Notes under the pieces: model-generated
Databases searched by the model: none
What the model saw: only the letters and a program-made list of their open reading frames with translations
Told to the model about the DNA's origin: nothing
Translations under genes and position numbers: made by a program
Shown: piece after piece, positions 34,137 through 61,491 of the stretch
Position numbering within the stretch: position 1 is the first letter of the stretch
How the letters are laid out: each line of letters starts with the position of its first letter
Source: a virus
Strand: one strand, 5' to 3'
Length of the DNA: 64,000 nucleotides
Virus record (IMG/VR): IMGVR_UViG_3300028920_000044
Span: 32,001 to 96,000 of that record

Positions 34137-37100
34137 TTATTCCTCCTCATCTAATACTTTTCTAACTTGTTGAATTAATTCTCTCAATGTGTAAGGTTTA
34201 TTAATGAAGCTTTTTGCTCCAGAACCAATTGCGTCGTTAATAGGACCATTAGCAGAATATCCGCTAGCCACAATGATTTTAGCAGTAGGTTCTTCAATAA
34301 TAATTCTTTCTAATACTTCTGTTCCTCCTATATCAGGCATAATTAAATCTAGAATAACTAAATCAATTAATTCCTTATTATTATTATAAGTCTCCAACCC
34401 CGATATACCGTCACAAGCAGATAAGACTGTATAACCATACATTTCTAGAATCTTGGTCCCTACTTTCTTGATATCTTCTTCATCATCGATCATAAGGATA
34501 GTTTCTTTTCCACCTATAAGATCCTTAGTTAAATCTATGGATGTTTGTTTCATTTCTTCCCCATCACTAATAGGGATATACAATTTAAACTCTGTTCCTT
34601 CATTCAAATTACTATATACAGTTATATACCCACCATGACTTTGCATAATACCATACACAACGGCTAATCCTAAACCAGTTCCTTTACCTGGTTCTTTAGT
34701 AGTAAAGAAAGGTTCAAAAATTCGTTCTTGTACATCAAAACTCATTCCTTCACCAGAATCAACGATACATATTCTGATATAATTCCCTGGTGTAGCATCA
34801 GGATGTTTCTCACAGTAATATTCGTCTAATTCTACTACCTTCGTTGTGATCATTATATGGCCACCATGAGGCATAGCATCTTTGGCATTTATACATAGAT
34901 TCGTTATTACTTGATTTAATTGAGTAGGGTCTGCCAAACCAAGTGGTAAATCTTCTTGAAGTTTTAACTTAATTTTTATCATAACTGGACCAGTTGCTGC
35001 ACGATCGAGAAGCTTATGGGCTAATTTAATTTCTTCGTTAACATTAATAGATTGAAGTCTACTTTCTACTTGTCTACTAAATGTAAGCAATCGTTTAGCT
35101 AAATCTGCTCCTCGCATAGATGCAGTATACATCGCAGATAACTGGCTTTTGATATCTTCATGATCCTTCACCATAAGTAACTGTAAATTACCGCTTATGA
35201 TTTGAACAATGTTGTTAAAGTCATGAGCAACACCACCAGCTAATGTCCCAACGGCTTCCATTTTAGAAGCTCTGCGTAATTGTCTTTCTTTTTCTAATAA
35301 AGCTTCTTGGGCTTTCTTCATACCAGAAATATCTTTAATTATTGAAAGAATATGATCCTCGCCACCTATCTTAATTACACTTGAAGAAACTAAAGCAGAT
35401 TTTGAAACACCATCTTTTCCTCTCAACATGGCTTCCATACTATCAACATATCCTCGTTCTCCAAGACTTTCATAGAACTTATCTCTATCTTCTTGATCTG
35501 ACCACATCTCTAATTCGATTACATCTTTTCCTATAGCTTCTTCTCTAGTGTATCCTGATTCTTTTGTGAATCCTTGATTAACATCAACTATAATACCACT
35601 ATTAGCTTTAAGAAGGATTATTGGATCAGGACTTGTTGTAAATGCTAATCTAAATTTCTCTTCACTTTCTTCAAGAGATTTCGTCGCGTTATAGCTATAA
35701 GTAATATCTTCAAATGCAATAGCAATACGATCTCCAGGTAAACAAAATGCTTTTATTCTATAAACACCGTCAAGATGGTCAGAATGATATATATAACCTT
35801 CATTCTCATACGGACCATTCTTTAAAACGCAAGAATTATAAAGCGCATTCTTTAAATCTCCTCCACCTGGCCATATTTCGTCAAAAGATTTACCTTGATT
35901 ACTACCAATATCTATTCTTGTGATTAATTCAGCAGCAGGATTACCATCAATAAGTATCATTTCTAAGTTCTTGCATTCATAAATAAAAATACCCGATGGT
36001 ACCGTCTCAAATATTTGAGATGCTGTCTGTAATTCATATTCTGCTTTAACCCGTGAAGTAATATCTTGACCAAGTGAAATAACACCTACTAACTCACCTT
36101 TATCATTATGAAGAATTGTGTTATTCCATTCGCAAGTTATAACATCTCCGGATTTAGTAAGATTATCATTCACAATATGGATCGGTAATGTTTTATTTAA
36201 TAAACTTTCAACAACATCTAAAAGTTGTAAACGCTCATGCTTTGGAATTAAGAAATCAAAGATATTGTTCCCAATTACTTCTTCTTTCGACCATCCAAAG
36301 ATTTTTTCTGCATGATCATTCCATTCTTTTATGTGAGTGTGTTCATCCCAAAATATAATAGCGAGAGGAGCAGTCTCGAAAAGAGTTCTATATCGCTCTT
36401 CACTTTCTCGTATAAGATATTGTGATTGTTTACGACCTAACGCAATACCGATACTCGCTCCAAGTCCTTCAAAAAACTCAATCATATCCAGAGTAAACAT
36501 ATTCCTTCGACGATCATTTAATTGTAGTAACCCTATATTTATTCCTTCTGGAGAAACTAATGGAATAAGACCAACTGACATATATCCTTCTGCATTACAC
36601 CTGTTACGAGTTTTAAGTTTGACACCTGTCGGTACACCATCGTCTTTTAATAATTCAACTGTGTTATTTGTCCAGAAACTACCACCAATTGTAAAGTGGG
36701 GTAGGTTAGAATCTGTCTCTCCGCAAATAATCATACCACACATACAATCTAAACAAGCTGTACCGTCCGAATGCCTGATTACATTACCTACTTCGTCCCG
36801 TGAACATATATGGGTTTCTTTTTGAACAAAGTCTTCATCAAATCCTTCAGTTACATAATAAGGATATTCATCATTATCTTGTAATCTAATAGCAACAGCA
36901 TCTAACCTAGTAAACCTTTTAATAAGAGTTAAAATCTTCTTAATAGTTAATTCAGCTTCAAATTCAGAATTAAGAATATCTAAGACATTTGAAGATAACT
37001 CCTGTCTTTCCCGATAACGTACTACATCTGATATGTCAGAGACTATTCCCACAAATCCAATTACCTCATTGTTTTTATCTCGTTTATAATTCCAATCAAC

Positions 37101-39215
37101 TTGAACATCAAAAGTTCTTCCACCTTTAGTGATATTCTTACCTTGATAAGTCTTAGGATCTGGTTGATCTATTGGTAAACTTCTAAACATATCTTTAAGT
37201 TCGTCTTTATTTTTGTCGCCCACAAACTCCCATATGTAATGCCCTAATACTTCGTCTTTAGACATTCTCATCATTTTTATATAAGCGCTATTAACATAAA
37301 TAAGTTTACCATTAATATCTAATTCTTCAATACCGTATGGACTTGTTTCTACTAATACACGATATTTTTTCTCACTTTCAATCAAAGCTTTTTCCGCCAA
37401 CTTACGATCTGTTACATTAATAAGTATCCCATCTATAACATCGTGTTCTTCGTTATATCGGGCAGACACTTCAAGAGCAACATCCGATCCATCCTTTTTA
37501 GTTCCTTTAATAGGAAGATTATCGATTCTTTTTACTTCTCTTAAATGATCTATAACGTTATTAATCTGTGTTTGATCAGTATATTTCCCCCAACCGGTAA
37601 ATTTATCAAAGAGATCTGTAGAATCATCATATCCAAGCATTTTTATATGAGCAGGATTAGCTTCTATTGTTTTACCGGTGCTGATTTGTATTTGAAACAT
37701 ACCTACCATGGACGTTTCATATATAGTTCTGTATTTTCTTTCACTATCTTCAATAATTTTTCGTTGAGCTAATCTATTTGTTATATCTCTAGCAAATGCA
37801 ACTATATATTCAACTTTATCAAATACAACATAAGTAGCAGATATTTCGACAGGTATTTTACTACTATCTTCTCTTTTATGTGTATGTTCGAAAATCAACC
37901 AACCTTTAGTTCTCATTTGGATGAAATGTTCTTTCCATTCCTTCTTTCCAAAATCACTAAAATGAATATCCCATACATTCTTTTTCATCAATTGGTCTTT
38001 AGTATATCCTAATTGACTACATGCAGTTTGATTCACATATACAAATCTTCCATTTTTATTTAACCAAAAAGCAGCATCTTTCATAGCGTGTACAGCAAAT
38101 TTAGTGAATTTAAGAAGCTTCTCAACTTTTAATCGAGCAAGTCGTTGGGTAATAAAAGCAACAATAATAAAGAACTGTATTACTATTATTGTGATACTTG
38201 GCCAAAAATATTTCTTATATTTATCATAAAATGATATTGGAGCATTTATTATAACACTGTCAACTGGTAATCTTTGTAAGTCTATATTACGATTCATTAA
38301 AACATTATAATCAAACATTGGGGTGTTTGGACTTTTAATTACAACGGGAATTGAATTAATATCGATTCCTGATAACACTTTAACTGCCATGTTAGCAGCA
38401 ATCTCCCCCTGTTTAAATCCATTTATAACATATCCTCCAATTATCTCATTACTAACACCAACTTCAAAATCACAAACGGTATACATTGAAATATCAGGCC
38501 TTAATTTTTTAACCATGCTCGTTACTTGTCTTAATGATAATATCTTACCATCAATAGAATGACTAAATAGATATTTAATTATTGCAGATCTAACAGGCAA
38601 CGACAATATCCATTTTTTAATCCCATCAATTGTCCATGTATGGATCCATGAAACATAACCGTCGAGATCGGAATTATTATCAAATATATCCTTAATTACT
38701 GAGTTGTCCGGTAGTCGAGTATCAATAACTACACCAATATGAGTAACATCTGGTTGTAACTGGTTAATCACATATATAGTTTTTGTCAGATCAAATTCTT
38801 CCATAACTCCAGTTACGTCTTTTACTTCTACAATATTAAACAATGGATTAATACCACAAAAAATAATAGGAGTAGATATATCTACATATGCTTCCTCACG
38901 ATGATTTAATGCAAACTCTAATGCATTATTATCGGACACAATAATGAGATCAAATTTCTTGTTTTTATGTTTAATATCAACGACTTCATGAAGCAACGTT
39001 CTTATTTCATCATAATTATTTCTTTTTGTGTCTAAATATTCTATGTGTTCTATATGATGCTCATTGGCATCTAAAACACTATCAATACCCTCCTGAATCC
39101 TATCTGTCCAAGCAAATCCTTGATGGTAAGAGTGAATAATTAATATCTCACCAGCGTTTGCTGCCGAACATAAAAGGGCAAATGCGCACATTAGTAAGAT
39201 TGTTTTTAGCTTCAA
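34137..39215 (-). CDS. Hybrid sensor histidine kinase (periplasmic ABC-SBP-like domain, TM, 6 PAS, Cys-rich GAF, HisKA, HATPase, REC)
   Basis: Signal peptide; ILIIHSYHQGFAWT; H-box GVAHDFNN; NLCINAKDAM; DSGEGM; IFEPFFTTK; GKGTGLGL; REC IDDE/LDLIMP/ASG/KP. Confidence 0.95.
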   Translation of the reverse strand: MKLKTILLMCAFALLCSAANAGEILIIHSYHQGFAWTDRIQEGIDSVLDANEHHIEHIEYLDTKRNNYDEIRTLLHEVVDIKHKNKKFDLIIVSDNNALEFALNHREEAYVDISTPIIFCGINPLFNIVEVKDVTGVMEEFDLTKTIYVINQLQPDVTHIGVVIDTRLPDNSVIKDIFDNNSDLDGYVSWIHTWTIDGIKKWILSLPVRSAIIKYLFSHSIDGKILSLRQVTSMVKKLRPDISMYTVCDFEVGVSNEIIGGYVINGFKQGEIAANMAVKVLSGIDINSIPVVIKSPNTPMFDYNVLMNRNIDLQRLPVDSVIINAPISFYDKYKKYFWPSITIIVIQFFIIVAFITQRLARLKVEKLLKFTKFAVHAMKDAAFWLNKNGRFVYVNQTACSQLGYTKDQLMKKNVWDIHFSDFGKKEWKEHFIQMRTKGWLIFEHTHKREDSSKIPVEISATYVVFDKVEYIVAFARDITNRLAQRKIIEDSERKYRTIYETSMVGMFQIQISTGKTIEANPAHIKMLGYDDSTDLFDKFTGWGKYTDQTQINNVIDHLREVKRIDNLPIKGTKKDGSDVALEVSARYNEEHDVIDGILINVTDRKLAEKALIESEKKYRVLVETSPYGIEELDINGKLIYVNSAYIKMMRMSKDEVLGHYIWEFVGDKNKDELKDMFRSLPIDQPDPKTYQGKNITKGGRTFDVQVDWNYKRDKNNEVIGFVGIVSDISDVVRYRERQELSSNVLDILNSEFEAELTIKKILTLIKRFTRLDAVAIRLQDNDEYPYYVTEGFDEDFVQKETHICSRDEVGNVIRHSDGTACLDCMCGMIICGETDSNLPHFTIGGSFWTNNTVELLKDDGVPTGVKLKTRNRCNAEGYMSVGLIPLVSPEGINIGLLQLNDRRRNMFTLDMIEFFEGLGASIGIALGRKQSQYLIRESEERYRTLFETAPLAIIFWDEHTHIKEWNDHAEKIFGWSKEEVIGNNIFDFLIPKHERLQLLDVVESLLNKTLPIHIVNDNLTKSGDVITCEWNNTILHNDKGELVGVISLGQDITSRVKAEYELQTASQIFETVPSGIFIYECKNLEMILIDGNPAAELITRIDIGSNQGKSFDEIWPGGGDLKNALYNSCVLKNGPYENEGYIYHSDHLDGVYRIKAFCLPGDRIAIAFEDITYSYNATKSLEESEEKFRLAFTTSPDPIILLKANSGIIVDVNQGFTKESGYTREEAIGKDVIELEMWSDQEDRDKFYESLGERGYVDSMEAMLRGKDGVSKSALVSSSVIKIGGEDHILSIIKDISGMKKAQEALLEKERQLRRASKMEAVGTLAGGVAHDFNNIVQIISGNLQLLMVKDHEDIKSQLSAMYTASMRGADLAKRLLTFSRQVESRLQSINVNEEIKLAHKLLDRAATGPVMIKIKLKLQEDLPLGLADPTQLNQVITNLCINAKDAMPHGGHIMITTKVVELDEYYCEKHPDATPGNYIRICIVDSGEGMSFDVQERIFEPFFTTKEPGKGTGLGLAVVYGIMQSHGGYITVYSNLNEGTEFKLYIPISDGEEMKQTSIDLTKDLIGGKETILMIDDEEDIKKVGTKILEMYGYTVLSACDGISGLETYNNNKELIDLVILDLIMPDIGGTEVLERIIIEEPTAKIIVASGYSANGPINDAIGSGAKSFINKPYTLRELIQQVRKVLDEEE

Positions 39216-39228
39216 ATAACACCTCCGA

Positions 39229-39597
39229 TTATTCGTCGAGTACTTCTCTAACGACTGTTTCTAACTCTTTTATATCTACTGGTTTCTGAACTAATCTTTT
39301 TGCACCTAAACTCGAACCATCCTCATTAGATGAAGTAATATAACCACTTAAAACTATAACCTTCACTTCTGGATTTATCTGTGTTAGCAGCACAATAGCA
39401 TCTTCTCCTTCAATATCAGGTAAACGCAAATCCATAAGTATTAAATCGATGTTACTATAATTTTGTTCATAATATGATTTAGCAGATGTAAATTCATAAA
39501 AACAAACAGTTTTATAATTATACTTTCCTAACATCTGGGCCAATATATCACAAATAGGCTTTTCATCATCCAATATTAATATTGATTCTTTAGACAA
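39229..39597 (-). CDS. Single-domain response regulator (CheY/CpdR-like)
   Basis: LDDE, MDLRLP, LSG, QKP. Confidence 0.92.
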   Translation of the reverse strand: MSKESILILDDEKPICDILAQMLGKYNYKTVCFYEFTSAKSYYEQNYSNIDLILMDLRLPDIEGEDAIVLLTQINPEVKVIVLSGYITSSNEDGSSLGAKRLVQKPVDIKELETVVREVLDE

Positions 39598-39610
39598 ATC
39601 TAGATCCTCC

Positions 39611-40498
39611 TTAGAATAACGCTTCCAGTTTATCCTTTAATGTGAATCCTTTTAATGGATTTGGCGATCTAGGGATAGTTGGAATATCTGGTACTTTGGG
39701 TAATTTATCAAAGTTGGTAATCTCATCAGCAAGCTTATTTTCTAATTTTGTTTTTTCTTCTAACAGTGACCCCATGTTAGTCTTCATTTTAGGGGTAACT
39801 CCAGGTACACCAGCGAATGGACCTATCTCAAACTCAGGTTCGCCAGTGATTTTTAATCCAGCTTTCGCAAGTTCACCTTCTATATCTACTACTGTCGGTA
39901 ATTTACTTTGATCGACATTAGGACATCCTTGTAAACAATTAATCAGATTTAATATTTCATCAAGCAAATCTAAAGGAAGCATATCTTTTAACCAAGACAA
40001 AGCATCCATTAATGCTTTTTCGATAGGATCTAATATTGCATCAAGAGCTTTAGCAATCAATCCCAGAATAGCATCAAGTAATCTACTTGCTAAGTCTTTT
40101 ATACCAGATAGATCGATTCCGCCTTTTCCTGGAAACCCAAAGTCAAATCCGCCTCCCAAACAATCAGCAAGATTCTGTAATGTGACATCGGATCCTTCTA
40201 CTATTTCCCCATTTAATACCTTATCAATCATACCTTTAGCAGCATCTTTCATTCCATCCGATGCATTATTAGCACCATTTTTAGCATCATCAGGATCTGA
40301 CAAACCCAGATCACCTAATCCTGCAAGTTCAAGCAATTTTCTTTTAGCGTCTTCAAGAGCTCCACCTTTAGCTCTATCTAGAATGTTTTTTAACTGTCTT
40401 TGTTTTTGACCTAATATATCATTCGCAGTCCTACAAGCTCCTTCGCTTGTAAGTTGTGGAACACCACCTATTAATTCTAAGTCAGGCATAATATTCAC
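39611..40498 (-). CDS. Hypothetical protein near the gp5-like gene, probable baseplate component
   Basis: ORF track; context. Confidence 0.6.
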   Translation of the reverse strand: MNIMPDLELIGGVPQLTSEGACRTANDILGQKQRQLKNILDRAKGGALEDAKRKLLELAGLGDLGLSDPDDAKNGANNASDGMKDAAKGMIDKVLNGEIVEGSDVTLQNLADCLGGGFDFGFPGKGGIDLSGIKDLASRLLDAILGLIAKALDAILDPIEKALMDALSWLKDMLPLDLLDEILNLINCLQGCPNVDQSKLPTVVDIEGELAKAGLKITGEPEFEIGPFAGVPGVTPKMKTNMGSLLEEKTKLENKLADEITNFDKLPKVPDIPTIPRSPNPLKGFTLKDKLEALF

Positions 40499-40500
40499 CT

Positions 40501-40731
40501 TTAATCATCGTCATATCCCGGTTCACCAATGTTTTTGACTGTGTCTACATCATCCCCAAATTTAGCAATAGCGTCCATCTTTGCTTTTTTAGTTAGTTTC
40601 ATATGTATATCAATCATAGTTTTCAATGGGTCATCTGCTTTTTCAAGTACACTTGCTAAAGGAAGACGGTAAACTATCTTTTCAGGCTTTTTGCCTGAAT
40701 TAAATGTTATTTCGTAAACTATTTCATCCAT
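40501..40731 (-). CDS. Hypothetical protein
   Basis: ORF track; coupled to neighbours. Confidence 0.6.
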   Translation of the reverse strand: MDEIVYEITFNSGKKPEKIVYRLPLASVLEKADDPLKTMIDIHMKLTKKAKMDAIAKFGDDVDTVKNIGEPGYDDD

Positions 40732-41839
40732 TTACACTACCATAGCCCCCGTCAGGTTTTGTAACATCGTCACATTTCTTACCTACTGCGGTATCACTAT
40801 CATATTCTTCCGTTTCTTTTGGACCTAAATCAATTACTTCTGTTTTAGGTTGAGCATCTTCGGCAACTTTTGAGACCTTTGCTTGTTTCTTATTCGCTAA
40901 TCCACTTTGTATATTAACACCACCAGCACCATCTATATTCACAGAACTATCACTATAAATATTACATGTTCCTGTAACAGAAATATTACAATCTCCGTCA
41001 ACTTCAAGAGTCATATCGTCTACAACAGATATATCATAACTACCTTCTATATTATCAATTTTATCACCAACAGTTGTAAGATGATGCTCTCCATGAACAT
41101 TTTCTTTACGATCCTTATAAACGATTTTATCTTCATTTTGAACAACATTAACTGTTCTATTACCACCAACTGCTAGATCTTCATTTTCTGCAATATTAGC
41201 TTTTCTATTCTTCTTAACGAGAAGACTTTTATCTCCATCAATCTGTTTATTATCATCAAGTTTTATACGAACACGACGATTGTCCCTAGTCCAAATATGA
41301 ATGCCTGATTCATCTATTCGATAGACTGTTCTTCGTTCTGGACTCTCATCACGATTATATACTAAATAAATAGTGTTTGGCTCTTTTTCAGTCTCTTCAT
41401 TAACATAGAATATGTTAAATTTTTTTGGTGTCTTAAATATAATATATTGTTCGTCCCTATCTAGAACTGCAGGTTTAACTGTTCTTCCATCTTGAGCTTC
41501 ATTATCGGTATTATCATCAGCATCAGAAATTATACGATTAATGTACCCAGAACTATAATCATTACTATAAAATTTGACTATTACTTTGGTACCTGCATGT
41601 AAAGGATAATAGCTGCCATATTCCCCATTGTCTGATGGTGTGATCCTCCAAGCATGAACTTGGTTCTTACACCATATTCCTTTATCTTCAGTAAGATGTT
41701 GCATTATCTCAGGCAAGTGAACTTTATAACGACCCATTTGTCTAGGGTCTGGTTCGCCTAAAATAGTACCAATAAATTCTTTCTCAATGAGGGATTCTAA
41801 AATATCTAATTCGCTCATAGTATTATCCTTCGTATGCAC
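40724..41839 (-). CDS. Baseplate central spike (T4 gp5/VgrG-like, no lysozyme domain)
   Basis: DPRQMGRYKV..P and PLHAGTKVIVKF OB-fold; 8-residue V.G beta-helix repeats. Confidence 0.82.
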   Translation of the reverse strand: MHTKDNTMSELDILESLIEKEFIGTILGEPDPRQMGRYKVHLPEIMQHLTEDKGIWCKNQVHAWRITPSDNGEYGSYYPLHAGTKVIVKFYSNDYSSGYINRIISDADDNTDNEAQDGRTVKPAVLDRDEQYIIFKTPKKFNIFYVNEETEKEPNTIYLVYNRDESPERRTVYRIDESGIHIWTRDNRRVRIKLDDNKQIDGDKSLLVKKNRKANIAENEDLAVGGNRTVNVVQNEDKIVYKDRKENVHGEHHLTTVGDKIDNIEGSYDISVVDDMTLEVDGDCNISVTGTCNIYSDSSVNIDGAGGVNIQSGLANKKQAKVSKVAEDAQPKTEVIDLGPKETEEYDSDTAVGKKCDDVTKPDGGYGSVNG

Positions 41840-42161
41840 CTAATTCTTTTAATATCTCATTAACCTTTTCAGCGATAACATCTTCATACTGTATACCAAT
41901 CTGATAATCTCCTCCGGCACCACCTGCAGTTACAGGTACCTTCTGACACCACACTACTTTAGCTGCAAACAAGTGATGTGTGCCTTCAAGTGAAAACTGT
42001 ATCATATCATCCACTTGAAATAATTGATCGACCATCAATGACATACCTCCATGGCATATATTTGAACTTTTAGCCACTCTTATAGACGTGCCATCTCCAA
42101 AAACATATGTCACATCAATAGCATACTGATATCGATCAACTTCTCTTCTATCATCACTCAT
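41823..42161 (-). CDS. PilZ domain protein
   Basis: REVDR (RxxxR), NICHGG, AKVVWC, YQIGIQY; start MSDDRR with AGGAG RBS. Confidence 0.8.
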   Translation of the reverse strand: MSDDRREVDRYQYAIDVTYVFGDGTSIRVAKSSNICHGGMSLMVDQLFQVDDMIQFSLEGTHHLFAAKVVWCQKVPVTAGGAGGDYQIGIQYEDVIAEKVNEILKELGAYEG

Positions 42162-42287
42162 GAAATATTCTCCTAATATGATCAAAGAGTTCGATGTCAA
42201 TCCATCCAAAATCATTTGCCACAAGTAATAACATGATTACTATACTAATAATTAAAACACTTGATACTACTTGATAAGTGGTTTGCT

Positions 42288-42869
42288 TCATTGTACACCC
42301 TCTGCTCTCTCCATCTTTATCTTATCTATTTCTATTTGAACCATTTTGCTCAAGTATTTTTTTAAAGACTTCCAACATTCTCTATCATTATTCTCTGGAT
42401 CAATACCTTTTTTATGTTTATCACCATCATTAGCTTTCCATCCGTCATCTTTACTAGGTATCAATGAATAGTTACCTTCTGTCTTATTAGGGATAAATAC
42501 GAAACAACCATTATTCTCTCCACTAAATCGACTTAATTTTTTATATTGGCCTTTCACAATATGACCAGCATAACCACTTACTAATTGACACCGAAAGTAA
42601 AATACTGGGTTCTCCCAGTCACCACCAGCTTGATGTAACCTACAATTAAACTTGCATTCTGTATGATCCCATTGATTCTGTGGAATAATTATTATTTTTT
42701 CCTGTCTATGATAAGTATCATCATTTTCTTGATCGAACCATATTTTAAAATCTTTCTTAGCTTGGACAGTTATATCTCTCCACATTCTACTTGCTAATTG
42801 ATCATAATGAAAGAACTGTGGTTTAAGTTTCTTTATTGCTTCATATAAATAAATCATCAGAGACACCAT
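42288..42869 (-). CDS. Hypothetical protein with tag variant (MVSLMIYLYE)
   Basis: ORF track. Confidence 0.75.
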   Translation of the reverse strand: MVSLMIYLYEAIKKLKPQFFHYDQLASRMWRDITVQAKKDFKIWFDQENDDTYHRQEKIIIIPQNQWDHTECKFNCRLHQAGGDWENPVFYFRCQLVSGYAGHIVKGQYKKLSRFSGENNGCFVFIPNKTEGNYSLIPSKDDGWKANDGDKHKKGIDPENNDRECWKSLKKYLSKMVQIEIDKIKMERAEGVQ

Positions 42870-43561: not shown

Positions 43562-43562
43562 T

Positions 43563-52666: not shown

Positions 52667-52669
52667 TCC

Positions 52670-52882: not shown

Positions 52883-52896
52883 GTTTTGTCTCTCCT

Positions 52897-53166: not shown

Positions 53167-53170
53167 TATA

Positions 53171-53317
53171 TCAGTCCTTGTCACTTGCCTGTTTACTTTC
53201 AACAATTTTTTCTTGATTAGAAGGGGTATCGCTCGTTTCTTGAACCCTTCGTAGTTTCTTAGCGAAATTCATCGCTCCTAATCCTGCTGTTATTCCGGTT
53301 AATTCTATGTTTGTCAT
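53171..53317 (-). CDS. 48-aa ORF absent from the track (MTNIELTGITAGLGAMNFAKKLRR...)
   Basis: Manually translated; GGAGGAGG RBS; paralog of 52670. Confidence 0.8.
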   Translation of the reverse strand: MTNIELTGITAGLGAMNFAKKLRRVQETSDTPSNQEKIVESKQASDKD

Positions 53318-53333
53318 ACCGCCTCCTCCATTA

Positions 53334-54062
53334 TTATTTCTTTGCTATTGTTGGTTTCCCAGCTTTAGCTTTCTTCCAATCGTCATATCTATTCTTTGCT
53401 CCAGCAGCTTTAAGACCTTTCGCTGCCGTGCGATTTACATGATATGCTCCCTTTGCACTATGCAATGTAGTTCTAATTCTATTCATTACTCCTGACTTAT
53501 CTATTGCATTTCCCATTTTCGCAGTAGCCCCAGATGCCGCTTTAGTACTCGATACCATAGCTTTACCAGCTTTCTTCATGGTCTTCTTTGCTTTATCCAT
53601 ACGCCAATCAGCAAATTGTTGTCCTCTTTTCTTGCCTAACCCTTTCATAATCCCTCTTCTAAGAGCACCACCAACTCGCATAGGAGCTCTTAACACAGCC
53701 CCAAGTTTACCACGTAACCGATTAGGATCTTGTAAACCTTTAGATAAATCCCTTCTTGCTTGATACAGAACTTGCCCCGCTTTTTTTGAATATTCTTTTC
53801 CAGCTTTACCATAATCAACAAGTTCATTAATAATAGATTGTCCTGTTTCTACAACAATATTAGCTTCATTTATATTCTCAATTATAGCATGACCAGTTAA
53901 ATAATCACTATAATCACAAAAAAATTCAATTAATTCATTGTCTTCACTAGATCCAATAAGATATCCAGCATCCTCATACATTGCTTCAGCAAATTCAATA
54001 TCTTCTTGAAGTATGACTCGATTCATTCCTAAAGAAATTGCAGCCGTTAGCTGTTGGCTCAT
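53334..54062 (-). CDS. Acidic-N/basic-C putative internal head protein
   Basis: IIENINE..IINE then Lys/Arg-rich. Confidence 0.75.
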   Translation of the reverse strand: MSQQLTAAISLGMNRVILQEDIEFAEAMYEDAGYLIGSSEDNELIEFFCDYSDYLTGHAIIENINEANIVVETGQSIINELVDYGKAGKEYSKKAGQVLYQARRDLSKGLQDPNRLRGKLGAVLRAPMRVGGALRRGIMKGLGKKRGQQFADWRMDKAKKTMKKAGKAMVSSTKAASGATAKMGNAIDKSGVMNRIRTTLHSAKGAYHVNRTAAKGLKAAGAKNRYDDWKKAKAGKPTIAKK

Positions 54063-55498
54063 AACATAGTCCCCTCATTTATTGCAATATTCAAAGCTGC
54101 ACAACTCTGCTTTGTAGGTTCCTCTTCGACAAATTGAATCATTAATGGATTGATTAATGATGGTTTAAAATCAGTAGTCCACTGTCCTGGTGTTACTTCG
54201 AAACAAACCTTATTTGCTTCTTTATCATATGATAAATAAGGATAGTTTGAAACCAAGTTACCTTTTGTTGTTATGAAGTTATACTTATATCCTCGTTTAA
54301 GCTCAAAGTCTCTTATATCAAATGAAACACAAAATACAACTCGATCTTGAGTTATTTGAGGAGATATGTCATCAGGATCATACACTATAAATGTTCGTTT
54401 AATGAATGTCTTTGGTTTATCAAATAAATAGGTTTTTTGATTGCTCTTTAAATAAATGGGGCCAACTACTGATCCTCTACGAATATTCTCATATTCAGCA
54501 TCTACATAATATTTAATACCATTTGAGAGTCTAACCCATACAGGAATACCATTCTCGACAATCCAATCACCATCAATTGGACCATCAGCCACTACATAGT
54601 TAAACCCAGAAAATTTATCAATCCATACTAAACGCCCTTGGTCATCAACTATCCATCTTCCCTGAGAAGTTGGATTCTTAGGAATAGGCGACCCTAAGTC
54701 TCCTTCTAAATTCGTTTCTCTGAAAGCGTTAAACAGCTTTTGCATAGGATAGTCAACGATTGGTTCATGACCAAATCGACTATAATGTAAATTTATTGTC
54801 TCCGTTATTTCTGGATCAATATCATTAAAAAGATACATAGGCATCTGAGTTAAAAAATTAACCTCCATATTAACCGGAAACGACCTAGTACTGGCGTCAG
54901 TAATCGAAGTACTAATACTCTCAAGACGTATGTGTGGCTTGTAACTCATGGAGTAACAATACTCAACTTGGCCCTTATTTTCGTTTAGTTTCGTAAATAA
55001 GTTAATGATCTTATGCCCATTATTTTTTATCCCAAGGGTTTCAAGATATTGGTATGGTATCTCTAAGAAGGAAGTGTACTCAAGAAATTGAATATACTTA
55101 TTGACTGGAAGATACCGTTTAATCATAAACTCGATATCCTTTGCCTGTAATTGCGACTCACAATTAATTATTATAGTTATAGAACTTTGAACATGTTCTT
55201 CTTGCAGCTTTACCATTCGTCTGTTTTCAGTATTATATAGCGCTACGTGTTGCATTTTATTTTCTGGACCAAATTGTTGAATTACATTTGGTCTTTCAGC
55301 GAATATATAATGATCATCATTAAGCGTTACGATGCATGCAGGAAATTCAAAATTCGGCTTGTAATCTTTATCTACGGCAAAGGATCGATTAGCAATATTG
55401 AAGTCATACGATTTAATTGTATTATTACCGAATATGTGCTTATCAAACATCGTACGAACAGATAATAGCAAATCTGAATAATAATTGTGTATTTTCAT
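54059..55498 (-). CDS. Hypothetical virion protein, possibly tail completion/neck fold
   Basis: 479 aa; FPACIV and ESQLQAKDI echo tail-terminator folds. Confidence 0.5.
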   Translation of the reverse strand: MKIHNYYSDLLLSVRTMFDKHIFGNNTIKSYDFNIANRSFAVDKDYKPNFEFPACIVTLNDDHYIFAERPNVIQQFGPENKMQHVALYNTENRRMVKLQEEHVQSSITIIINCESQLQAKDIEFMIKRYLPVNKYIQFLEYTSFLEIPYQYLETLGIKNNGHKIINLFTKLNENKGQVEYCYSMSYKPHIRLESISTSITDASTRSFPVNMEVNFLTQMPMYLFNDIDPEITETINLHYSRFGHEPIVDYPMQKLFNAFRETNLEGDLGSPIPKNPTSQGRWIVDDQGRLVWIDKFSGFNYVVADGPIDGDWIVENGIPVWVRLSNGIKYYVDAEYENIRRGSVVGPIYLKSNQKTYLFDKPKTFIKRTFIVYDPDDISPQITQDRVVFCVSFDIRDFELKRGYKYNFITTKGNLVSNYPYLSYDKEANKVCFEVTPGQWTTDFKPSLINPLMIQFVEEEPTKQSCAALNIAINEGTML

Positions 55499-55510
55499 AT
55501 ATACTCTCTT

Positions 55511-55915
55511 TTATGCTGCCCGTCTTTGAGGGAATACAGAAGCCATAATTCCAGATTTTGTAGTCCTAGGTTTTCTACCTTTAATAACCGTAAAATCTTT
55601 TCTTCGAGTATCAGGAACATTTGTTTGCCGTACAGATTTTTCAATCTGTTTTTGAGCTGCAGCTGTACTATCAATAGTATGTTGCCTAGATAATCTATCA
55701 CCAACAGCGGCTTTCATATTAGTAAGATTCGATGATGCTTCCATACTTCTAAGTTTATGCTTCAAGTTCTTTTGCATACCTGGTAAATATTTCTTGACTC
55801 CACCACCGAAACTTGAATCTAAATCCTTAGCTAATCCAACATTAAGGCGAGCTTTATTTTTACCATACTTTTCGACTTCTGATGAAAACCTTTCTATTAA
55901 AGGTGTATTGTACAT
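55511..55915 (-). CDS. Basic hypothetical protein
   Basis: AGGAG RBS. Confidence 0.65.
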   Translation of the reverse strand: MYNTPLIERFSSEVEKYGKNKARLNVGLAKDLDSSFGGGVKKYLPGMQKNLKHKLRSMEASSNLTNMKAAVGDRLSRQHTIDSTAAAQKQIEKSVRQTNVPDTRRKDFTVIKGRKPRTTKSGIMASVFPQRRAA

Positions 55916-55923
55916 ATATTCTC

Positions 55924-56148
55924 CTAACGCAGCTTATTATTCATAACTGCGGCAGCTCTCAAGAGGGCTGGATTTCTCGAAGGTAATGTTGTAGGCATTA
56001 CTTCTTTCCTTCGAAAAGGTCTCTTCAGCAGTTGGGCTCCAGTGTGCGCAACATCTCTGAAACTAGGAACACTCATCTCATCAACATTATAGTCTTCATT
56101 TTTAGAAAAATTTAACGGGTCGTTAAACAAATACGATACAGGTATCAT
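55924..56148 (-). CDS. Tagged small protein (MIPVSYLFN)
   Basis: N-terminal tag. Confidence 0.7.
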   Translation of the reverse strand: MIPVSYLFNDPLNFSKNEDYNVDEMSVPSFRDVAHTGAQLLKRPFRRKEVMPTTLPSRNPALLRAAAVMNNKLR

Positions 56149-56882
56149 TTTAAGTCTTCCTCCATTAATTCAGATAATAATTTAATTTTTTCAAATATTT
56201 CATTCTGATATTCAGTACGGTACCTTACTCTAAACTCAAAATAAGTTTTTTGTATATCAGGCCAATGTCCATAATCAAATGACAATGATACTTCATATAC
56301 CATCTTTTCAAAATCGTACTCCTTATAAAGTATTTCTAAATTCTTATCAAATGATTTACTTAAAGAATGCAAACAATCTAGATTATCTGCTGTAAATAAA
56401 ACATAAAGAGTACCACTATTTTGATGTCCATGCCCTTCACACGATGAAAATGTTGTTATTCCAGGAAACATATTAATAGTAGCACATAAAGGAGCAACCT
56501 CTAGATCAATTCCTATAGAATCTTCAAGACCTCCACCACATTGATCACCCTTTCTTGTACTTACATGTGGTAAAAGATTCTTCAATACTATCAATCCTTC
56601 TTCTGGGCAACCTAAATCTCTTAGATCCTTATATTCTAATTCATAGCATTCTAAATATGCAACTACAAAATTAAAGAGAGTTTCACCATTTAGACTTCCA
56701 TAAGGACCAATCATCATAAAATTTTTATTCTTCCTAACTCTATCAGTCTTTACATTTAAACTATTTAATTCTTTAATGTCAATAAGATAATAATTTATTA
56801 CTTTTGATAAATGTTCAATATCAATCAGATATTCGTCCTGTTTGAGAACTATATTGTAGCTGTACTTGTATATCTCTATCAT
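56145..56882 (-). CDS. Hypothetical protein with TFSSCEGH motif (TYW3-like)
   Basis: INMFPGITTFSSCEGH resembles the TYW3 TTSSCSG motif. Confidence 0.6.
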   Translation of the reverse strand: MIEIYKYSYNIVLKQDEYLIDIEHLSKVINYYLIDIKELNSLNVKTDRVRKNKNFMMIGPYGSLNGETLFNFVVAYLECYELEYKDLRDLGCPEEGLIVLKNLLPHVSTRKGDQCGGGLEDSIGIDLEVAPLCATINMFPGITTFSSCEGHGHQNSGTLYVLFTADNLDCLHSLSKSFDKNLEILYKEYDFEKMVYEVSLSFDYGHWPDIQKTYFEFRVRYRTEYQNEIFEKIKLLSELMEEDLK

Positions 56883-57036
56883 TTAAAATCCTTATATTAG
56901 ATAGTATTTCGTTACGTCTATCGCATCCTGAGCGTCGCTCTTTGCCTCCACGAACAAAATAAGTGAGATCCAAAAATTTTCTTCTATTCTCTTGCCTCCG
57001 TCTCTCCGATATTCCCTTCCGTTTTTGGGTCTTCAT
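56821..57036 (-). CDS. Arg-rich RRxxxxRR repeat peptide
   Basis: ERRRQENRR...YFVRGGKERRSGCDRR; overlaps the PilZ gene end. Confidence 0.6.
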   Translation of the reverse strand: MKTQKRKGISERRRQENRRKFLDLTYFVRGGKERRSGCDRRNEILSNIRILNDRDIQVQLQYSSQTGRISD

Positions 57037-57346
57037 CTGGTAACCTTACGCCTAAGAACACAGCTAACCTTCTTCTAATTTCGTTATCAATTGTCGTTGA
57101 ATTAAAGTAAATACCAATATCAAATACCCCATTCGCTATTTCTTGACATCTAAGTGCAGTTGATTTAAAATTTGCATCTCCATCAGGTAATTGTAGCGTC
57201 GTGTCTAATTCAGTTAACCGAGGGATATCTCGACTTGATGTACAACTTAATCCACCCATACTTATGTTCTTGGTCTGACAGTATACACCATCAAGAATCA
57301 CTGTTAATACTTCATTCTTCCTCACAGCCGTTCTATTATCAGACAT
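56984..57346 (-). CDS. PilZ domain protein
   Basis: RTAVR (RxxxR), NISMGG, ALRC, IGIYF. Confidence 0.85.
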   Translation of the reverse strand: MSDNRTAVRKNEVLTVILDGVYCQTKNISMGGLSCTSSRDIPRLTELDTTLQLPDGDANFKSTALRCQEIANGVFDIGIYFNSTTIDNEIRRRLAVFLGVRLPDEDPKTEGNIGETEARE

Positions 57347-57350
57347 GTTA

Positions 57351-57533
57351 TCACCTAAGGCTAGAGTATCTACTCAATACTTTATTTTGATATATTGTAA
57401 ATAATCCTTTTTTCTTCTCTCTCTTTACTGGATCAGGTTCCTTTTTAATGGCATCAGCCATTGCAGGAATTACTTTTGTAGGCTTACTTAAATTAGCTGC
57501 TTTACCATCAAATATATGACTAATTGAAATCAT
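57351..57533 (-). CDS. Tagged small protein (MISISHIFD)
   Basis: N-terminal tag. Confidence 0.7.
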   Translation of the reverse strand: MISISHIFDGKAANLSKPTKVIPAMADAIKKEPDPVKREKKKGLFTIYQNKVLSRYSSLR

Positions 57534-57997
57534 TATGACACACTCCTCGCAAATGTTTTAGCGACATCTCTCGCTTTCTCATCTGTTTTAATAATAAACG
57601 GTTTGCTTATTCTATCGAATCCACTTGTTTTATTAGTAATCTTATCACCTATACCAAAAGAAGCAATAGCTCGATGACTCCATCCAAACCATTTACCACT
57701 CGCCGCTTTACCGAATGAATCTACTGAACTGTTCATAGTTTGTCTTTCTCCTCTAATTCCTAACCACTGAGGATAAGTCGACAATGGATGCCCTTTAGAG
57801 TCTTTTGGTACATTCTTAACAGTTCGATCTTCTGGTGCAATTTTAGTAACAAAATATTGATTGCGTTTAAACTTCTTCATCCTATTTGTTTTAGGATTAA
57901 AGTCTTTAACCTTCTTTTTCTTTCTTTTAACAACAGCATATTCACCAGATTTAAGATCTGGCTTTTTATCTTCAAATAACCAAGATATAGTAATCAT
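57533..57997 (-). CDS. Tagged protein (MITISWLFE) with KWFGWSHRA motif
   Basis: N-terminal tag. Confidence 0.75.
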   Translation of the reverse strand: MITISWLFEDKKPDLKSGEYAVVKRKKKKVKDFNPKTNRMKKFKRNQYFVTKIAPEDRTVKNVPKDSKGHPLSTYPQWLGIRGERQTMNSSVDSFGKAASGKWFGWSHRAIASFGIGDKITNKTSGFDRISKPFIIKTDEKARDVAKTFARSVS

Positions 57998-58006
57998 CGT
58001 TTATCC

Positions 58007-58345
58007 TTATGCCGCGCTTTTAGTAATTCTAGGCATGTTAGTTTTACGCCTTTCAATACCTTTATATGGTTTAACTTTAAGGGTCTTAGGCTCCAATTCT
58101 TTCCTTGCCCTTCGTATCATATTTGTAGCTCCGCCAATAGCAGCATTACCGAATCTCATCATTTGTGTTCTATGTTTAGTTGGAACCATACTAGGATCTG
58201 CACCAGCTGCAAATCCAGACACTCTCCTACCTTCCTTAGACATAACATTAGAGATCCCTAAGTAATCATTTCTCTTTTTAAAAGTTTTAATCTGTGCTTT
58301 GGCGCTAGGACTATATTTCTCAAATAACCATCCTACTGTTATCAT
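58007..58345 (-). CDS. Tagged basic protein (MITVGWLFE)
   Basis: N-terminal tag. Confidence 0.75.
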   Translation of the reverse strand: MITVGWLFEKYSPSAKAQIKTFKKRNDYLGISNVMSKEGRRVSGFAAGADPSMVPTKHRTQMMRFGNAAIGGATNMIRRARKELEPKTLKVKPYKGIERRKTNMPRITKSAA

Positions 58346-58446
58346 AATATATCCTTATAATTAATTACAAACTTATACCTTTTAAGATCAACTAAATTTA
58401 ATCCTATAGTGGGAATTGCTTCAAATAACCAAGATATTGATATCAT
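58342..58446 (-). CDS. 34-aa tagged ORF absent from the track (MISISWLFEAIPTIGLNLVDLKRYKFVINYKDIL)
   Basis: Manually translated; AAGGA RBS; ATGA overlap with the next gene. Confidence 0.7.
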   Translation of the reverse strand: MISISWLFEAIPTIGLNLVDLKRYKFVINYKDIL

Positions 58447-58449
58447 TGT

Positions 58450-59001
58450 TTATCCTTTAGCATGATCAAACTTAACAAGTTTGAAGAACTCTTGACCTGT
58501 CATACGTGGTTTAAGTTTTCTTGGATCAATTTCAACAGAGTTATATCCTTTGCCACCCTTTTGTACCTTCTCCATAAAAGAATATACTAATCGAATTATT
58601 TGATCTATATTATTAAATGGCCCACGTATACCTCTAAATTTAGCAAATGAATGTTCGAAATACATCCACTTATCAATTTGCTTATACGCTACAAATGAAT
58701 GACAACTGGTATAATATTGCTGTATGTGAATTAATTTATGTTCACGATTCCATTTCTTAAAGAAGTAATGTTCAAACCATGTCTGCTCGTAACATGTACC
58801 TATCTTATATTTATACACTTCTTCAGGAGTAGCTATAACACATTTATTCCACCAAAGATCAGGATCGTCAAAATCAGTATACTTTTTATGGTTCTTATCC
58901 ATCCAACCATATTTGATACGATCCATCCATTTTAATAATTCTTCTGGAGTCTTGATATCTAGCATATTCAGCATCTCAAATAAACATTGGATAGGTATCA
59001 T
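58450..59001 (-). CDS. Tagged transglutaminase-like / papain-fold protein (MIPIQCLFE)
   Basis: TPEEV...GTCYEQ, CHSFVAY, WMYFE: Cys-His-Glu triad pattern. Confidence 0.7.
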   Translation of the reverse strand: MIPIQCLFEMLNMLDIKTPEELLKWMDRIKYGWMDKNHKKYTDFDDPDLWWNKCVIATPEEVYKYKIGTCYEQTWFEHYFFKKWNREHKLIHIQQYYTSCHSFVAYKQIDKWMYFEHSFAKFRGIRGPFNNIDQIIRLVYSFMEKVQKGGKGYNSVEIDPRKLKPRMTGQEFFKLVKFDHAKG

Positions 59002-59399
59002 TGTTTGTCCTTCGCTTCTCTTGCTCTATTTATAAGTCGTTCAGCATCTTCTATATCACCTATTGCTCGTCTAAATACATCTAGAAATATTGAATTAACA
59101 TGCTGATCAATCTTATAGCTTTTCTTACCAACATTATTCTCTATTAAAGAAGAAACAATTCCCTTTTTATAAAAAGCAATAAATGAAGCTCTTATACAAT
59201 TCACTGCAACATATTGTGCCATTGTTGGCATACAGGAGTTTGATAATTGCTTTTCTTTATTCGCACACTTATCAATATACTTATCAATATATTTCGAGTA
59301 GAACTGTTCTAATTTCTGAGTTTCACTGTTCGCTGGAATAGCTAAAGACATAAGAGAAATGAATATAAAAAACACTGATATATCTATTAACTTTAACAT
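58998..59399 (-). CDS. Secreted/periplasmic hypothetical protein
   Basis: Signal peptide ending PANS. Confidence 0.65.
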   Translation of the reverse strand: MLKLIDISVFFIFISLMSLAIPANSETQKLEQFYSKYIDKYIDKCANKEKQLSNSCMPTMAQYVAVNCIRASFIAFYKKGIVSSLIENNVGKKSYKIDQHVNSIFLDVFRRAIGDIEDAERLINRAREAKDKQ

Positions 59400-59424
59400 T
59401 TCTCAATCCCTCCAGTCAGTTGAT

Positions 59425-59748
59425 TTAGGCCCCTGCAACATTTGTTTTCTCGTCGTAATTTGCATTCCCCACAAATTTATCTGCGTCTTTATCGACATCA
59501 GACTCTCCAGATAATTCTGGATCTACTTTAGCATTATCAGCGGTAATACTACCACCTTGAAAATGTTGCGCAATTCTTTTCTTTGCTACACTTGATAAAT
59601 TGATAGGAATATTCACAGCAGGATATTTAGAAGTATATCCCCTTTTAGTGAATTGAAATACGTCATTTTCTCCTATCCTCCGAAGTCCTTTCACTAGGAT
59701 TAAAGCACCTAACCCTGATGAAATTCCCAAAGCTTCTAATTTCGTCAT
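59425..59748 (-). CDS. GISSGLGAL-KGLRR family protein
   Basis: AAGGAG RBS; motif. Confidence 0.75.
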   Translation of the reverse strand: MTKLEALGISSGLGALILVKGLRRIGENDVFQFTKRGYTSKYPAVNIPINLSSVAKKRIAQHFQGGSITADNAKVDPELSGESDVDKDADKFVGNANYDEKTNVAGA

Positions 59749-59752
59749 AAGC

Positions 59753-60805
59753 CTACTCCTTTAAAGATTCAAGAAAATCATTAAAATCATTAAAACCATA
59801 CAATACATCAAATGCAGCATCCGCACATTCTTCATCATACAGTATACCTCTGTTTTTATTTATTTCATCTAACGCTACCGCAACTCCAAGAGCAGGCCTA
59901 TATGGTCTATGTGTTGACATCGATTCGATTACATCACTAACAGCAATAATCTTGGATGAAAACAAAATGTCATCACCTTTTAATCCTTGTGGGTAACCAG
60001 ACCCATTTATTCTCTCGTGATGTTGATGTACTATTTCAGAAACATCACAAGGTAACAGATCTTTAAATGGAATGTTTTTAATTATATCGTATCCTACATC
60101 TGAATGGTCTTTAATCAAAGCAAACTCATTCTTACTCAATTTTGATGGTTTAGTCAAAATATCAGAAGGTATAGATATCTTACCAATATCATGCATTAAG
60201 CCAGCAATACGAACACAATCAACTCTATCTTCTTTTAATCCAAGAATCTTAGCCATTTCAACAGATAATTGTGTAACCCTTTCTTGATGTCCCGCAGTAT
60301 AAGGATCTCTAGCTTCCGTTACTTTGGAGAGAGTTCTAATTGTTTGATCTAATACATTAATTACTTCTTGAGTTTTTTCTTTCACTTCTCTCTCTAAATT
60401 TATCTTATAATTCTCTTGGTGTACTAAGAGTTGATATTTTTCAATACAATTATTGACGGTGTGCAGTAACAAATCAAAATTAACCGGTTTCATTAAATAA
60501 TCACAGGCACCATGTCTAAGAGAATCTACTATATCCTGCATTGAACCAGCACCAGAGAACATAACAACTTGGTGTTTTGGATAATCACTTTTAATAAGTG
60601 CCAAAAGTTGAACACCAGTCAATCTTGGCATATCAATATCAGTAAGCGTTACAATTGGCGTATATTGATTAAATAATCTTAAACCTTCCTCCCCATCGTT
60701 TGCTGTAATGACTTCGAACCCATTCCCCTCCAAGAAATGTTTTATTGGTTCTACTACCAACGGTTCATCATCAATCAAAAGAATCTTAAAGGGTTCATTC
60801 ATCAC
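59753..60805 (-). CDS. Response regulator with HD-GYP cyclic-dinucleotide phosphodiesterase (RpfG-like)
   Basis: REC IDDE/TDIDMP/KP; RDPYTAGHQERV, HDIGK, HHERINGSGYP, RPYR. Confidence 0.95.
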   Translation of the reverse strand: MMNEPFKILLIDDEPLVVEPIKHFLEGNGFEVITANDGEEGLRLFNQYTPIVTLTDIDMPRLTGVQLLALIKSDYPKHQVVMFSGAGSMQDIVDSLRHGACDYLMKPVNFDLLLHTVNNCIEKYQLLVHQENYKINLEREVKEKTQEVINVLDQTIRTLSKVTEARDPYTAGHQERVTQLSVEMAKILGLKEDRVDCVRIAGLMHDIGKISIPSDILTKPSKLSKNEFALIKDHSDVGYDIIKNIPFKDLLPCDVSEIVHQHHERINGSGYPQGLKGDDILFSSKIIAVSDVIESMSTHRPYRPALGVAVALDEINKNRGILYDEECADAAFDVLYGFNDFNDFLESLKE

Positions 60806-61179
60806 ATTAATACTCCATCTAATATTTTGTCTATTTGATCAAATTCCCAATGGGGGATTCGCAATAATCCCATACCCTTTTCTTCAATATAGGAGTTCTT
60901 AATTTGATCATTAATTTTAGTTCGTTCGTGAACATATTTAGCTTTATATCCTTTATTTACTGGATCGTAATGGTGCTCACCATCGAATTCAATTAATATA
61001 TTATGGTCTGGTAAATAAAAGTCAAATCTTAATGGCTTTCTTCCTGTTCTTCCAAGACAATCTTTAAATGTCTTTTCCATCTCAAATGTCACTCGACGTT
61101 GTTCAAGTGATTGTGCAATCTTTAGTTCTCCTTTTGAGACTTTCTTGCCCTTATAATATCTTCTCTTTTTAGGCATCAT
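60802..61179 (-). CDS. PD-(D/E)xK endonuclease (DUF559/DUF2726/Vsr-like)
   Basis: SKGE, LRFDFYLP, LIEFDGEHH, LLRIPHW. Confidence 0.8.
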   Translation of the reverse strand: MMPKKRRYYKGKKVSKGELKIAQSLEQRRVTFEMEKTFKDCLGRTGRKPLRFDFYLPDHNILIEFDGEHHYDPVNKGYKAKYVHERTKINDQIKNSYIEEKGMGLLRIPHWEFDQIDKILDGVLM

Positions 61180-61185
61180 ATACCT

Positions 61186-61491
61186 CTAAATATTCAAACA
61201 TGTTTCTAAATCCATTCTAACACTCGATGTCGGAGAAAGAGGATCAAACTTAATTGCAGTCGAATACTCCCTTTTATCCAGTTTAACACACCGATTACAA
61301 AGCCCCGTAAGGTTAATATCACCCGAAGGTAAACTTAAAATGATAGTTAATAATGATCCTTTTTCGATAAATTTATTAGTTCGACACATTACTCCACTCA
61401 AACTAATATCTTTTGTTTTGCCAAGAATTTGGTCATTTATTTTTATATTTAATTCTTGACATGCTCGGTTAAAGAATCTTTGATCATTCAT
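61186..61491 (-). CDS. PilZ domain protein
   Basis: RFFNR (RxxxR), DISLSG, TAIKF; start MNDQR with GAGG RBS. Confidence 0.85.
   Translation of the reverse strand: MNDQRFFNRACQELNIKINDQILGKTKDISLSGVMCRTNKFIEKGSLLTIILSLPSGDINLTGLCNRCVKLDKREYSTAIKFDPLSPTSSVRMDLETCLNI

Follow-up and report, generated by a model that had tools for sequence, protein, structure and literature searches.

We analysed a 64,000-nt stretch of viral DNA (the window), which corresponds to bases 32001–96000 of a 109,194-bp IMG/VR virus record (IMGVR_UViG_3300028920_000044, called G000 here). The record encodes a hybrid sensor histidine kinase, a lone receiver (REC), a response regulator with an HD-GYP phosphodiesterase domain (REC-HD-GYP) and a set of PilZ proteins, and the same set recurs in a collinear relative (G001). 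We lean slightly towards the view that this phage lineage owns a functional cyclic-dinucleotide module for host takeover, vertically inherited and long kept, which would act in the manner of RpfC/RpfG. Gene coordinates (Table 1) are window positions unless marked G000.

The first-pass annotation of the window had described an intact 1692-aa hybrid kinase, a stand-alone REC, a REC-HD-GYP with intact catalytic motifs and three PilZ proteins. Pfam matches and motif reading confirmed that the kinase and both receiver proteins are real and intact, the catalytic motifs of the HD-GYP domain included. All three PilZ proteins likewise exist with their motifs, and their number had been underestimated: five are encoded on G000 and seven in G001.

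The kinase begins with a signal or first transmembrane segment, a PF04392-type solute-binding-like domain predicted to be periplasmic (residues ~23–334) and a second transmembrane segment (~335–358), followed by several PAS domains, a Cys-rich GAF domain, HisKA, HATPase_c and a C-terminal receiver. Pfam matched an ABC_sub_bind-like N-terminal domain, four to five PAS domains, GAF, HisKA, HATPase_c (77 bits) and Response_reg (72 bits). All boxes expected of such a kinase were present, namely the H-box AHDFNN, NLCINAKDAM, DSGEGM, FEPFFTTK, GTGLGL and the receiver motif LDLIMPD. The start codon is TTG, preceded by the Shine–Dalgarno (SD) site GGAGGTG. The lone receiver lies 13 nt upstream of the kinase in one operon and carries DD11-12, D56, S84 and K105; in G001, a syntenic 123-aa REC stands immediately before the kinase. 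The gene order is PilZ1, the baseplate spike, an unknown protein and then the REC–kinase unit, all amid tail genes. Within the kinase GAF domain, we also observed a Cys-rich stretch, LDCMCGMIICGE, at residues ~790–830, which is kept in the G001 kinase as LDCLCGCVIEYD and could hold a metal or redox cofactor.

The kinase core with its receiver was 58% identical to the G001 orthologue and the boxes were all invariant; identity was 38% over 1105 aligned residues, and homology between the two kinases starts only at G000 residue 613. The sensor module is of the PF04392 type in G000 and in four metagenomic orthologues (P0145–P0148), and of the SBP_bac_3 type in G001 and in G006, a member of a separate jumbo-phage lineage. 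The periplasmic sensor module has been swapped between G000 and G001. P0145–P0148 share the architecture of the G000 kinase with a conserved H-box and REC, and their sensor domains are 48–53% identical to it. A histidine phosphotransfer (Hpt) domain (PF01627) was found in none of G000, G001, G006 and G007 (of the same lineage as G006) at E ≤ 1, and the search of the remainder of the record that the first-pass annotation had suggested thus gave no Hpt in 109 kb. The 88-aa gene after the kinase was considered as a hidden Hpt and rejected, since its product has no histidine and carries instead an N-terminal tag found on many small proteins of this phage.

REC-HD-GYP is a response regulator of the RpfG type. 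Its start is more likely the ATG at 60802 (open reading frame (ORF) listed to 60805). The receiver retains DD12-13, D56, S84 and K106, and the phosphodiesterase domain retains HD204-205, HHE262-264 and GYP270-272. The protein was 47% identical to its G001 orthologue with every catalytic residue kept, and the receiver and HD-GYP catalytic residues were invariant across 18 lineage members. Homologues in a large protein database fell into tiers at 74–85% and 52–56% identity. The nearest solved structures were V-cGAP3 of Vibrio cholerae (5Z7C, E 1e-33), PmGH (4MCW, E 2e-29) and PA4781 (4R8Z). V-cGAP3 is specific for 3'3'-cyclic GMP-AMP (3'3'-cGAMP) and PmGH acts on cyclic di-GMP (c-di-GMP), and the N-terminal domains of both differ from that of the phage enzyme; therefore, its substrate cannot be assigned by homology.

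The PilZ proteins stand alone, are 100–125 aa long and fall into five to seven paralogous families. The RxxxR motif and the Gly of D/NxSxxG were invariant in 12 phage PilZ proteins (5 from G000 and 7 from G001) and equally in 12 PilZ4 orthologues. In G000, PilZ1 has Cys and PilZ5 has Gly in place of the motif Ser, each a deviation at one residue, and the G001 orthologues of both are canonical. PilZ2 aligns with all other phage PilZ proteins, and its G001 orthologue scored 28.1 bits. For PilZ5, the AlphaFold2 model had a predicted local distance difference test (pLDDT) score of 87, and 37 of the 40 chains listed as fold matches belonged to the PilZ family; the top 10 had E ≤ 0.001, with MotI, PA PilZ, BcsA, YcgR and Alg44 leading, and the three non-PilZ chains were weak (E ≥ 0.075). 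MotI/DgrA (YpfA, 5VX6) was the best PilZ match both by sequence profile (E 2e-5) and by fold (TM 0.73). The phage proteins share RxxxR, D/NxSxxG and the six-strand barrel with a C-terminal helix with the cellular receptors MotI/DgrA, YcgR, MapZ (PA4608), Alg44 and BcsA; they differ from these in being phage-encoded paralogous stand-alone families, with PilZ4 lacking a detectable close cellular homologue. Among 5.8 billion proteins, PilZ4 had only 12 homologues, all 60–100% identical (tiers at 78–85% and 60–65%) and all from the phage lineage, with none detectable outside it; tblastn against deposited phage genomes gave no match. The starts of PilZ1 and PilZ3 are more likely ATG 42161, after an SD site (ORF listed to 42224), and 61491 (ORF listed to 61572), respectively. 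The 3' end of PilZ1 overlaps the start of the spike gene, indicating that the two are translationally coupled, and in G001 PilZ1 likewise precedes the spike gene. In both G000 and G001, PilZ4 immediately follows the GH108 endolysin gene.

We then compared these genes with those of relatives. G001 is a 61,481-bp IMG/VR fragment from another metagenome; its terminase is 76% identical to that of G000, with which it is collinear over its whole length. The kit sought in related phages was found there in full and at the same positions, i.e., the kinase, the lone REC before it, PilZ1 before the spike gene, PilZ2, REC-HD-GYP, PilZ3, PilZ5 and PilZ4, together with two additional PilZ genes. Structural proteins with good matches were mostly 55–75% identical between G000 and G001, and signalling proteins were 34–58% identical with every functional residue retained. 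IMG/VR searches with the terminase, a 420-aa core protein and a REC-HD-GYP alignment returned G001 as the only relative of the lineage. A PilZ4 orthologue and a kinase orthologue each lie on a 65,241-bp contig, which is probably one and the same. The first-pass annotation had raised chimeric assembly as a concern; the same gene order in an independent assembly from another sample, together with the invariant motifs, excludes it. The same comparison rules out recent host capture as well, and the conserved motifs speak for selection on activity. That the genes recur in a collinear relative and among metagenomic orthologues renders a function much more likely than the first-pass annotation could have shown.

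Outside this lineage, parts of the set were found. G006 (234 kb, 89% complete) and G007 encode a hybrid kinase of SBP_bac_3-PAS-GAF architecture together with a REC-HD-GYP. Next after the REC-HD-GYP comes a conserved protein of 283 aa that has a transmembrane segment and part of a receiver; neither PilZ nor GGDEF was found in the two phages. Five other HD-GYP-bearing IMG/VR viral contigs had neither PilZ nor kinase. Kinase matches in deposited phage genomes were mostly mislabelled host contigs, except two 735-kb huge-phage records. A metagenome scan with a back-translated motif gave, among the matches listed, only cellular-type HD-GYP, at ≤56% identity over the HD domain and without phage neighbours.

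The composition of the signalling genes was next considered. Their G+C content and G+C at third codon positions (GC3) match those of phage core genes, in agreement with the earlier description of them as AT-rich like their neighbours, and an SD site precedes each gene. The best cellular relatives of REC-HD-GYP and the kinase core were from Desulfobulbaceae, Desulfobacterales and Candidatus Magnetomorum (Desulfobacterota), at ≤47% identity. In a maximum-likelihood tree, which was quick, unrooted and made largely of nameless rows, the lineage REC-HD-GYP proteins formed a 19-member clade (SH-aLRT 99), which joined those of G006 and G007 in a 25-member clade (97) amid Magnetomorum/Desulfobulbaceae-type sequences. 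A Desulfobacterota donor of REC-HD-GYP is suggested by this placement as a lead and not as a result, and the closest cellular homologues point weakly to a host in Desulfobacterota. The GC3 match, the strong SD sites, the low cellular identity, the REC-HD-GYP clade and the lineage-only PilZ4 together indicate long residence in the phage with vertical inheritance, which forms one claim with the functional reading and shares the slight preference that we give it. The genes are intact and phage-adapted in composition, and the earlier proposal that they are not one captured host block is supported. The accompanying statement that they are scattered among virion genes holds for the kinase, REC and PilZ1, which lie between the tail-fibre and spike genes, and not for REC-HD-GYP, PilZ2 and PilZ3, which are found in an accessory region whose small genes include a Tad6-like gene and a nuclease gene.

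The lack of a cyclase, first reported for the window, was confirmed over the whole 109-kb record, where neither GGDEF nor EAL was found, and over three related records, as GGDEF was absent from G001, the 89%-complete G006 and G007. Rfam gave no RNA family in the visible DNA and hence no c-di-GMP or cGAMP riboswitch. As G000 represents ~41% of its genome (CheckV, 109-kb record), the absences of a cyclase and an Hpt are provisional.

From these features, we propose the following course of events. After infection, the hybrid kinase would enter the host inner membrane, where its solute-binding-type periplasmic domain and cytoplasmic PAS/GAF domains could combine outer and inner cues. It would govern phosphorylation of the adjacent lone receiver and, most likely, of REC-HD-GYP. 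In the absence of an Hpt, the phosphate might take three routes, namely direct transfer from HisKA to REC, transfer through a host Hpt, or transfer to the kinase's own receiver as a sink. The activated HD-GYP domain would break down c-di-GMP and possibly 3'3'-cGAMP too; with no phage cyclase, the host would be driven to a low-messenger state, in which it would be motile, form no matrix and be metabolically active. Binding of c-di-GMP is expected of the five to seven single-domain PilZ proteins, each of which probably has a docking target of its own, in the host or the phage, and reports the messenger level there; we infer separate targets because five distinct orthologous families persist and not one abundant copy.

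The proposed course resembles that of RpfC/RpfG in Xanthomonas, which likewise pairs a membrane hybrid kinase with an HD-GYP response regulator having intact HD, HHE and GYP motifs, and in which an active sensor is expected to lower c-di-GMP. However, the phage system is virus-encoded, no Hpt was found for it, and its input is a solute-binding-type periplasmic domain with PAS/GAF. In addition, 20 kb separate the phage kinase from REC-HD-GYP, a further lone receiver is encoded, and five to seven PilZ proteins are co-inherited. General Pfam scans of the phage neighbouring genes gave no RpfF-type synthase family. By analogy, the phage system would be Rpf-like in its working, and it is not a member of the Rpf/diffusible signal factor (DSF) family.

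Several observations weigh against a host-takeover module. No Hpt accompanies the hybrid kinase in G000, G001 or G006, leaving the phosphorelay route ambiguous, and a cyclase or Hpt could sit in the part of the genome that is not visible. The 20 kb between the kinase and REC-HD-GYP leaves the two tied by co-occurrence alone, and the kinase operon stands amid late structural genes, which is odd for early sensing. The nearest solved HD-GYP, V-cGAP3, is a 3'3'-cGAMP-specific phosphodiesterase, and the genes for a Tad6-like protein, a nuclease and a SUKH protein make the surroundings of REC-HD-GYP resemble a counter-defence island. These last points fit an alternative in which HD-GYP destroys immune cyclic dinucleotides (3'3'-cGAMP of the cyclic-oligonucleotide-based anti-phage signalling system (CBASS) type, or c-di-GMP made by cGAS/DncV-like nucleotidyltransferases (CD-NTases)), the PilZ proteins act as sponges and the kinase and receivers tune the response. 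Iyer et al. (2021, PMC7824862) had predicted that HD-GYP enzymes of jumbo phages act against nucleotide-based defence, Tad6 is a type I Thoeris inhibitor (PMC13728456) with its homologue here encoded between PilZ2 and REC-HD-GYP, and other IMG/VR phages have HD-GYP without kinase or PilZ. Against this, the phosphodiesterase keeps its phospho-acceptor receiver in 18 of 18 relatives, and a 1692-aa membrane sensor is maintained. The enzymes and sponges that phages are known to use against such signals are small and constitutive. Moreover, the PilZ proteins belong to five separate orthologue families in place of a single abundant sponge, their motifs match those found in housekeeping c-di-GMP receptors, and Pfam scans of the HD-GYP and PilZ proteins gave only HD_5, HD, Response_reg and PilZ, with no match to Acb1, Tad1, Tad2 or Acb2. 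We regard counter-defence as an unlikely account of the set, kept alive by the Tad6-like gene beside the phosphodiesterase.

The places of two PilZ genes suggest another alternative, i.e., a phage-internal decision circuit in which the sensor-controlled phosphodiesterase sets the level of c-di-GMP and PilZ proteins tune lysis timing, baseplate/virion assembly or delayed development by it. The translational coupling of PilZ1 to the spike gene and the position of PilZ4 right after the endolysin gene, each seen in both phages, are in line with such a circuit, as are the embedding of the kinase operon in late genes and the lineage-specific PilZ paralogues. However, where phage genes are packed as densely as here, adjacency is weak evidence, none of the PilZ proteins carries a fused phage functional domain, and a precedent was not found in the searched literature; we consider this circuit rather improbable. 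A bolder form, which we hold to be doubtful, is that the virus runs its own second-messenger network, where the sensor would set c-di-GMP via the phosphodiesterase and PilZ proteins would couple its level to spike/baseplate assembly and lysis. If so, the host messenger pool would be a viral decision variable. Finally, the genes might be misassembled host DNA or recently captured, functionless passengers, given that G000 is a metagenomic fragment and that all the domains have abundant cellular homologues. This is contradicted by the identical gene order in an independent assembly from another sample, by a 100%-identical REC-HD-GYP and PilZ4 on a 306-kb contig in another collection, and by invariant motifs, phage-like composition and cellular identity of ≤47%, and we give it hardly any credence.

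Phages are known to interfere with the signalling of their hosts by means of individual small proteins or enzymes. In full-text literature, we found phage peptides binding a host cyclase, phage proteins binding host PilZ, a listing of jumbo-phage HD-GYP (2021) and a 'probable diguanylate cyclase' annotation in phage G; the searches returned no phage with a sensor kinase, receivers, REC-HD-GYP and several PilZ proteins. A complete kit with several PilZ genes thus appears undescribed. As in the earlier jumbo-phage cases (PMC7824862), HD-GYP is encoded by a large phage, but here it is fused to a canonical receiver and co-inherited with a sensor kinase, a lone receiver and the PilZ set. The lineage retains more over deep divergence than a single protein, namely a sensor with a swapped input, two receivers, a regulated phosphodiesterase and a private family of putative c-di-GMP receptors. 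If active, the host-takeover module would make this a rare case of a virus that perceives extracellular conditions and resets a global switch of bacterial lifestyle; the bacteria concerned would most likely be sulfate reducers of the sediment. It would also be a source of compact, orthogonal PilZ receptors and of a sensor–phosphodiesterase pair.

The remaining genes identify the phage. Sheath, head, terminase, DNA polymerase, DnaB, tail-fibre and spike genes are present, as expected of real phage DNA, which the first-pass annotation had assumed. PHROG assigned a UvsX-like recombinase within the window and, in its left flank, a tail sheath, a major head protein, a DNA polymerase and a DnaB-type helicase; the right flank encodes the GH108 endolysin and a C92 amidase. 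The terminase, major head protein, tail sheath, baseplate spike and own replication genes of a tailed jumbo myovirus were thus all found. The visible DNA gave no tyrosine integrase, and the flanks gave no tRNA. G000 is a fragment of a large, uncultured myovirus from sediment that is probably virulent. REC-HD-GYP and PilZ4 occur at 100% identity on a 306,383-bp contig in another collection (large protein database), whose length fits a jumbo genome.

Table 1. Positions of the features described in the text (window coordinates unless another record is named).
Feature	Position	Strand	Basis and remarks
1961-aa protein	332-6217	(-)	C-terminal M23 peptidase domain
Large terminase, T4-type	6231-8084		PHROG
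Tagged gene	25600-25851	(-)	N-terminal tag
Long tail fibre, 1274 aa	28584-32408	(-)	PHROG
Tagged gene	32627-33100	(-)	N-terminal tag
Tagged gene	33868-34134	(-)	N-terminal tag
Hybrid sensor histidine kinase, 1692 aa	34137-39215	(-)	Pfam, motifs, SD site, orthologues
Cys-rich stretch in kinase GAF	37400-37900	(-)	
Single-domain receiver (CheY-like)	39229-39597	(-)	Pfam Response_reg only, 64 bits
gp5-like baseplate spike	40724-41839	(-)	Pfam Gp5_trimer_C and Gp5_C; PHROG 430 baseplate hub; 64% identical in G001
PilZ1	41823-42161	(-)	Pfam PilZ 31.9 bits; RxxxR and NICHGG (Cys for Ser); canonical DVSPGG in G001
PilZ2	56984-57346	(-)	Pfam PilZ (PF07238) 19.6 bits (cut-off 22.5); RTAVR and NISMGG
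Tagged gene	57351-57533	(-)	N-terminal tag
Tad6-like protein, 154 aa	57533-57997	(-)	Pfam PF25188 Tad6, 53 bits versus 27-bit cut-off; 70% identical in G001; N-terminal tag
REC-HD-GYP, RpfG-type response regulator	59753-60802	(-)	Pfam Response_reg 87 bits, HD_5 122 bits
125-aa protein	60802-61179	(-)	No Pfam hit; G001 orthologue 65% identical, same position
PilZ3	61186-61491	(-)	Pfam PilZ 32.7 bits; RFFNR and DISLSG; RFYSR and NISLGG in G001
Tagged gene	61853-62566	(-)	N-terminal tag
Tagged gene	62580-63323	(-)	N-terminal tag
Tagged gene	63334-63672	(-)	N-terminal tag
SUKH/SMI1-KNR4 protein	G000 95669-96079	(-)	
PilZ5	G000 96311-96661	(-)	No Pfam hit; G001 orthologue 29.9 bits; just beyond window
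PilZ4	G000 97511-97885	(-)	Pfam PilZ 50.5 bits; most canonical; just beyond window
G006 locus	G006 19683-23306		
G006 locus	G006 189629-191570		
G007 locus	G007 4923-6864		

The neighbourhood of REC-HD-GYP is tightly packed, with PilZ3, the 125-aa protein, REC-HD-GYP itself and small unknown genes in a run. The 125-aa gene stands between PilZ3 and REC-HD-GYP and overlaps the start of the latter, and a staphylococcal-nuclease-like gene lies nearby. The Tad6-like protein, encoded between PilZ2 and REC-HD-GYP, begins with MITISWLFE and may be an injected anti-Thoeris protein. Its beginning conforms to an N-terminal tag, M-I/L-x-I/V-S-x-L-F-E, that we observed on many unrelated small proteins of G000 and on three G001 proteins; the tag (MIxISxLFE) is on none of the signalling proteins. 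The SUKH/SMI1-KNR4 gene is located between tagged small genes and PilZ5, and proteins of this kind are often immunity proteins in conflict systems. The 1961-aa protein is probably a tail-associated lysin or tape-measure-like. The tail-fibre gene lacks a counterpart at the syntenic G001 site, which suggests different receptors for the two relatives.

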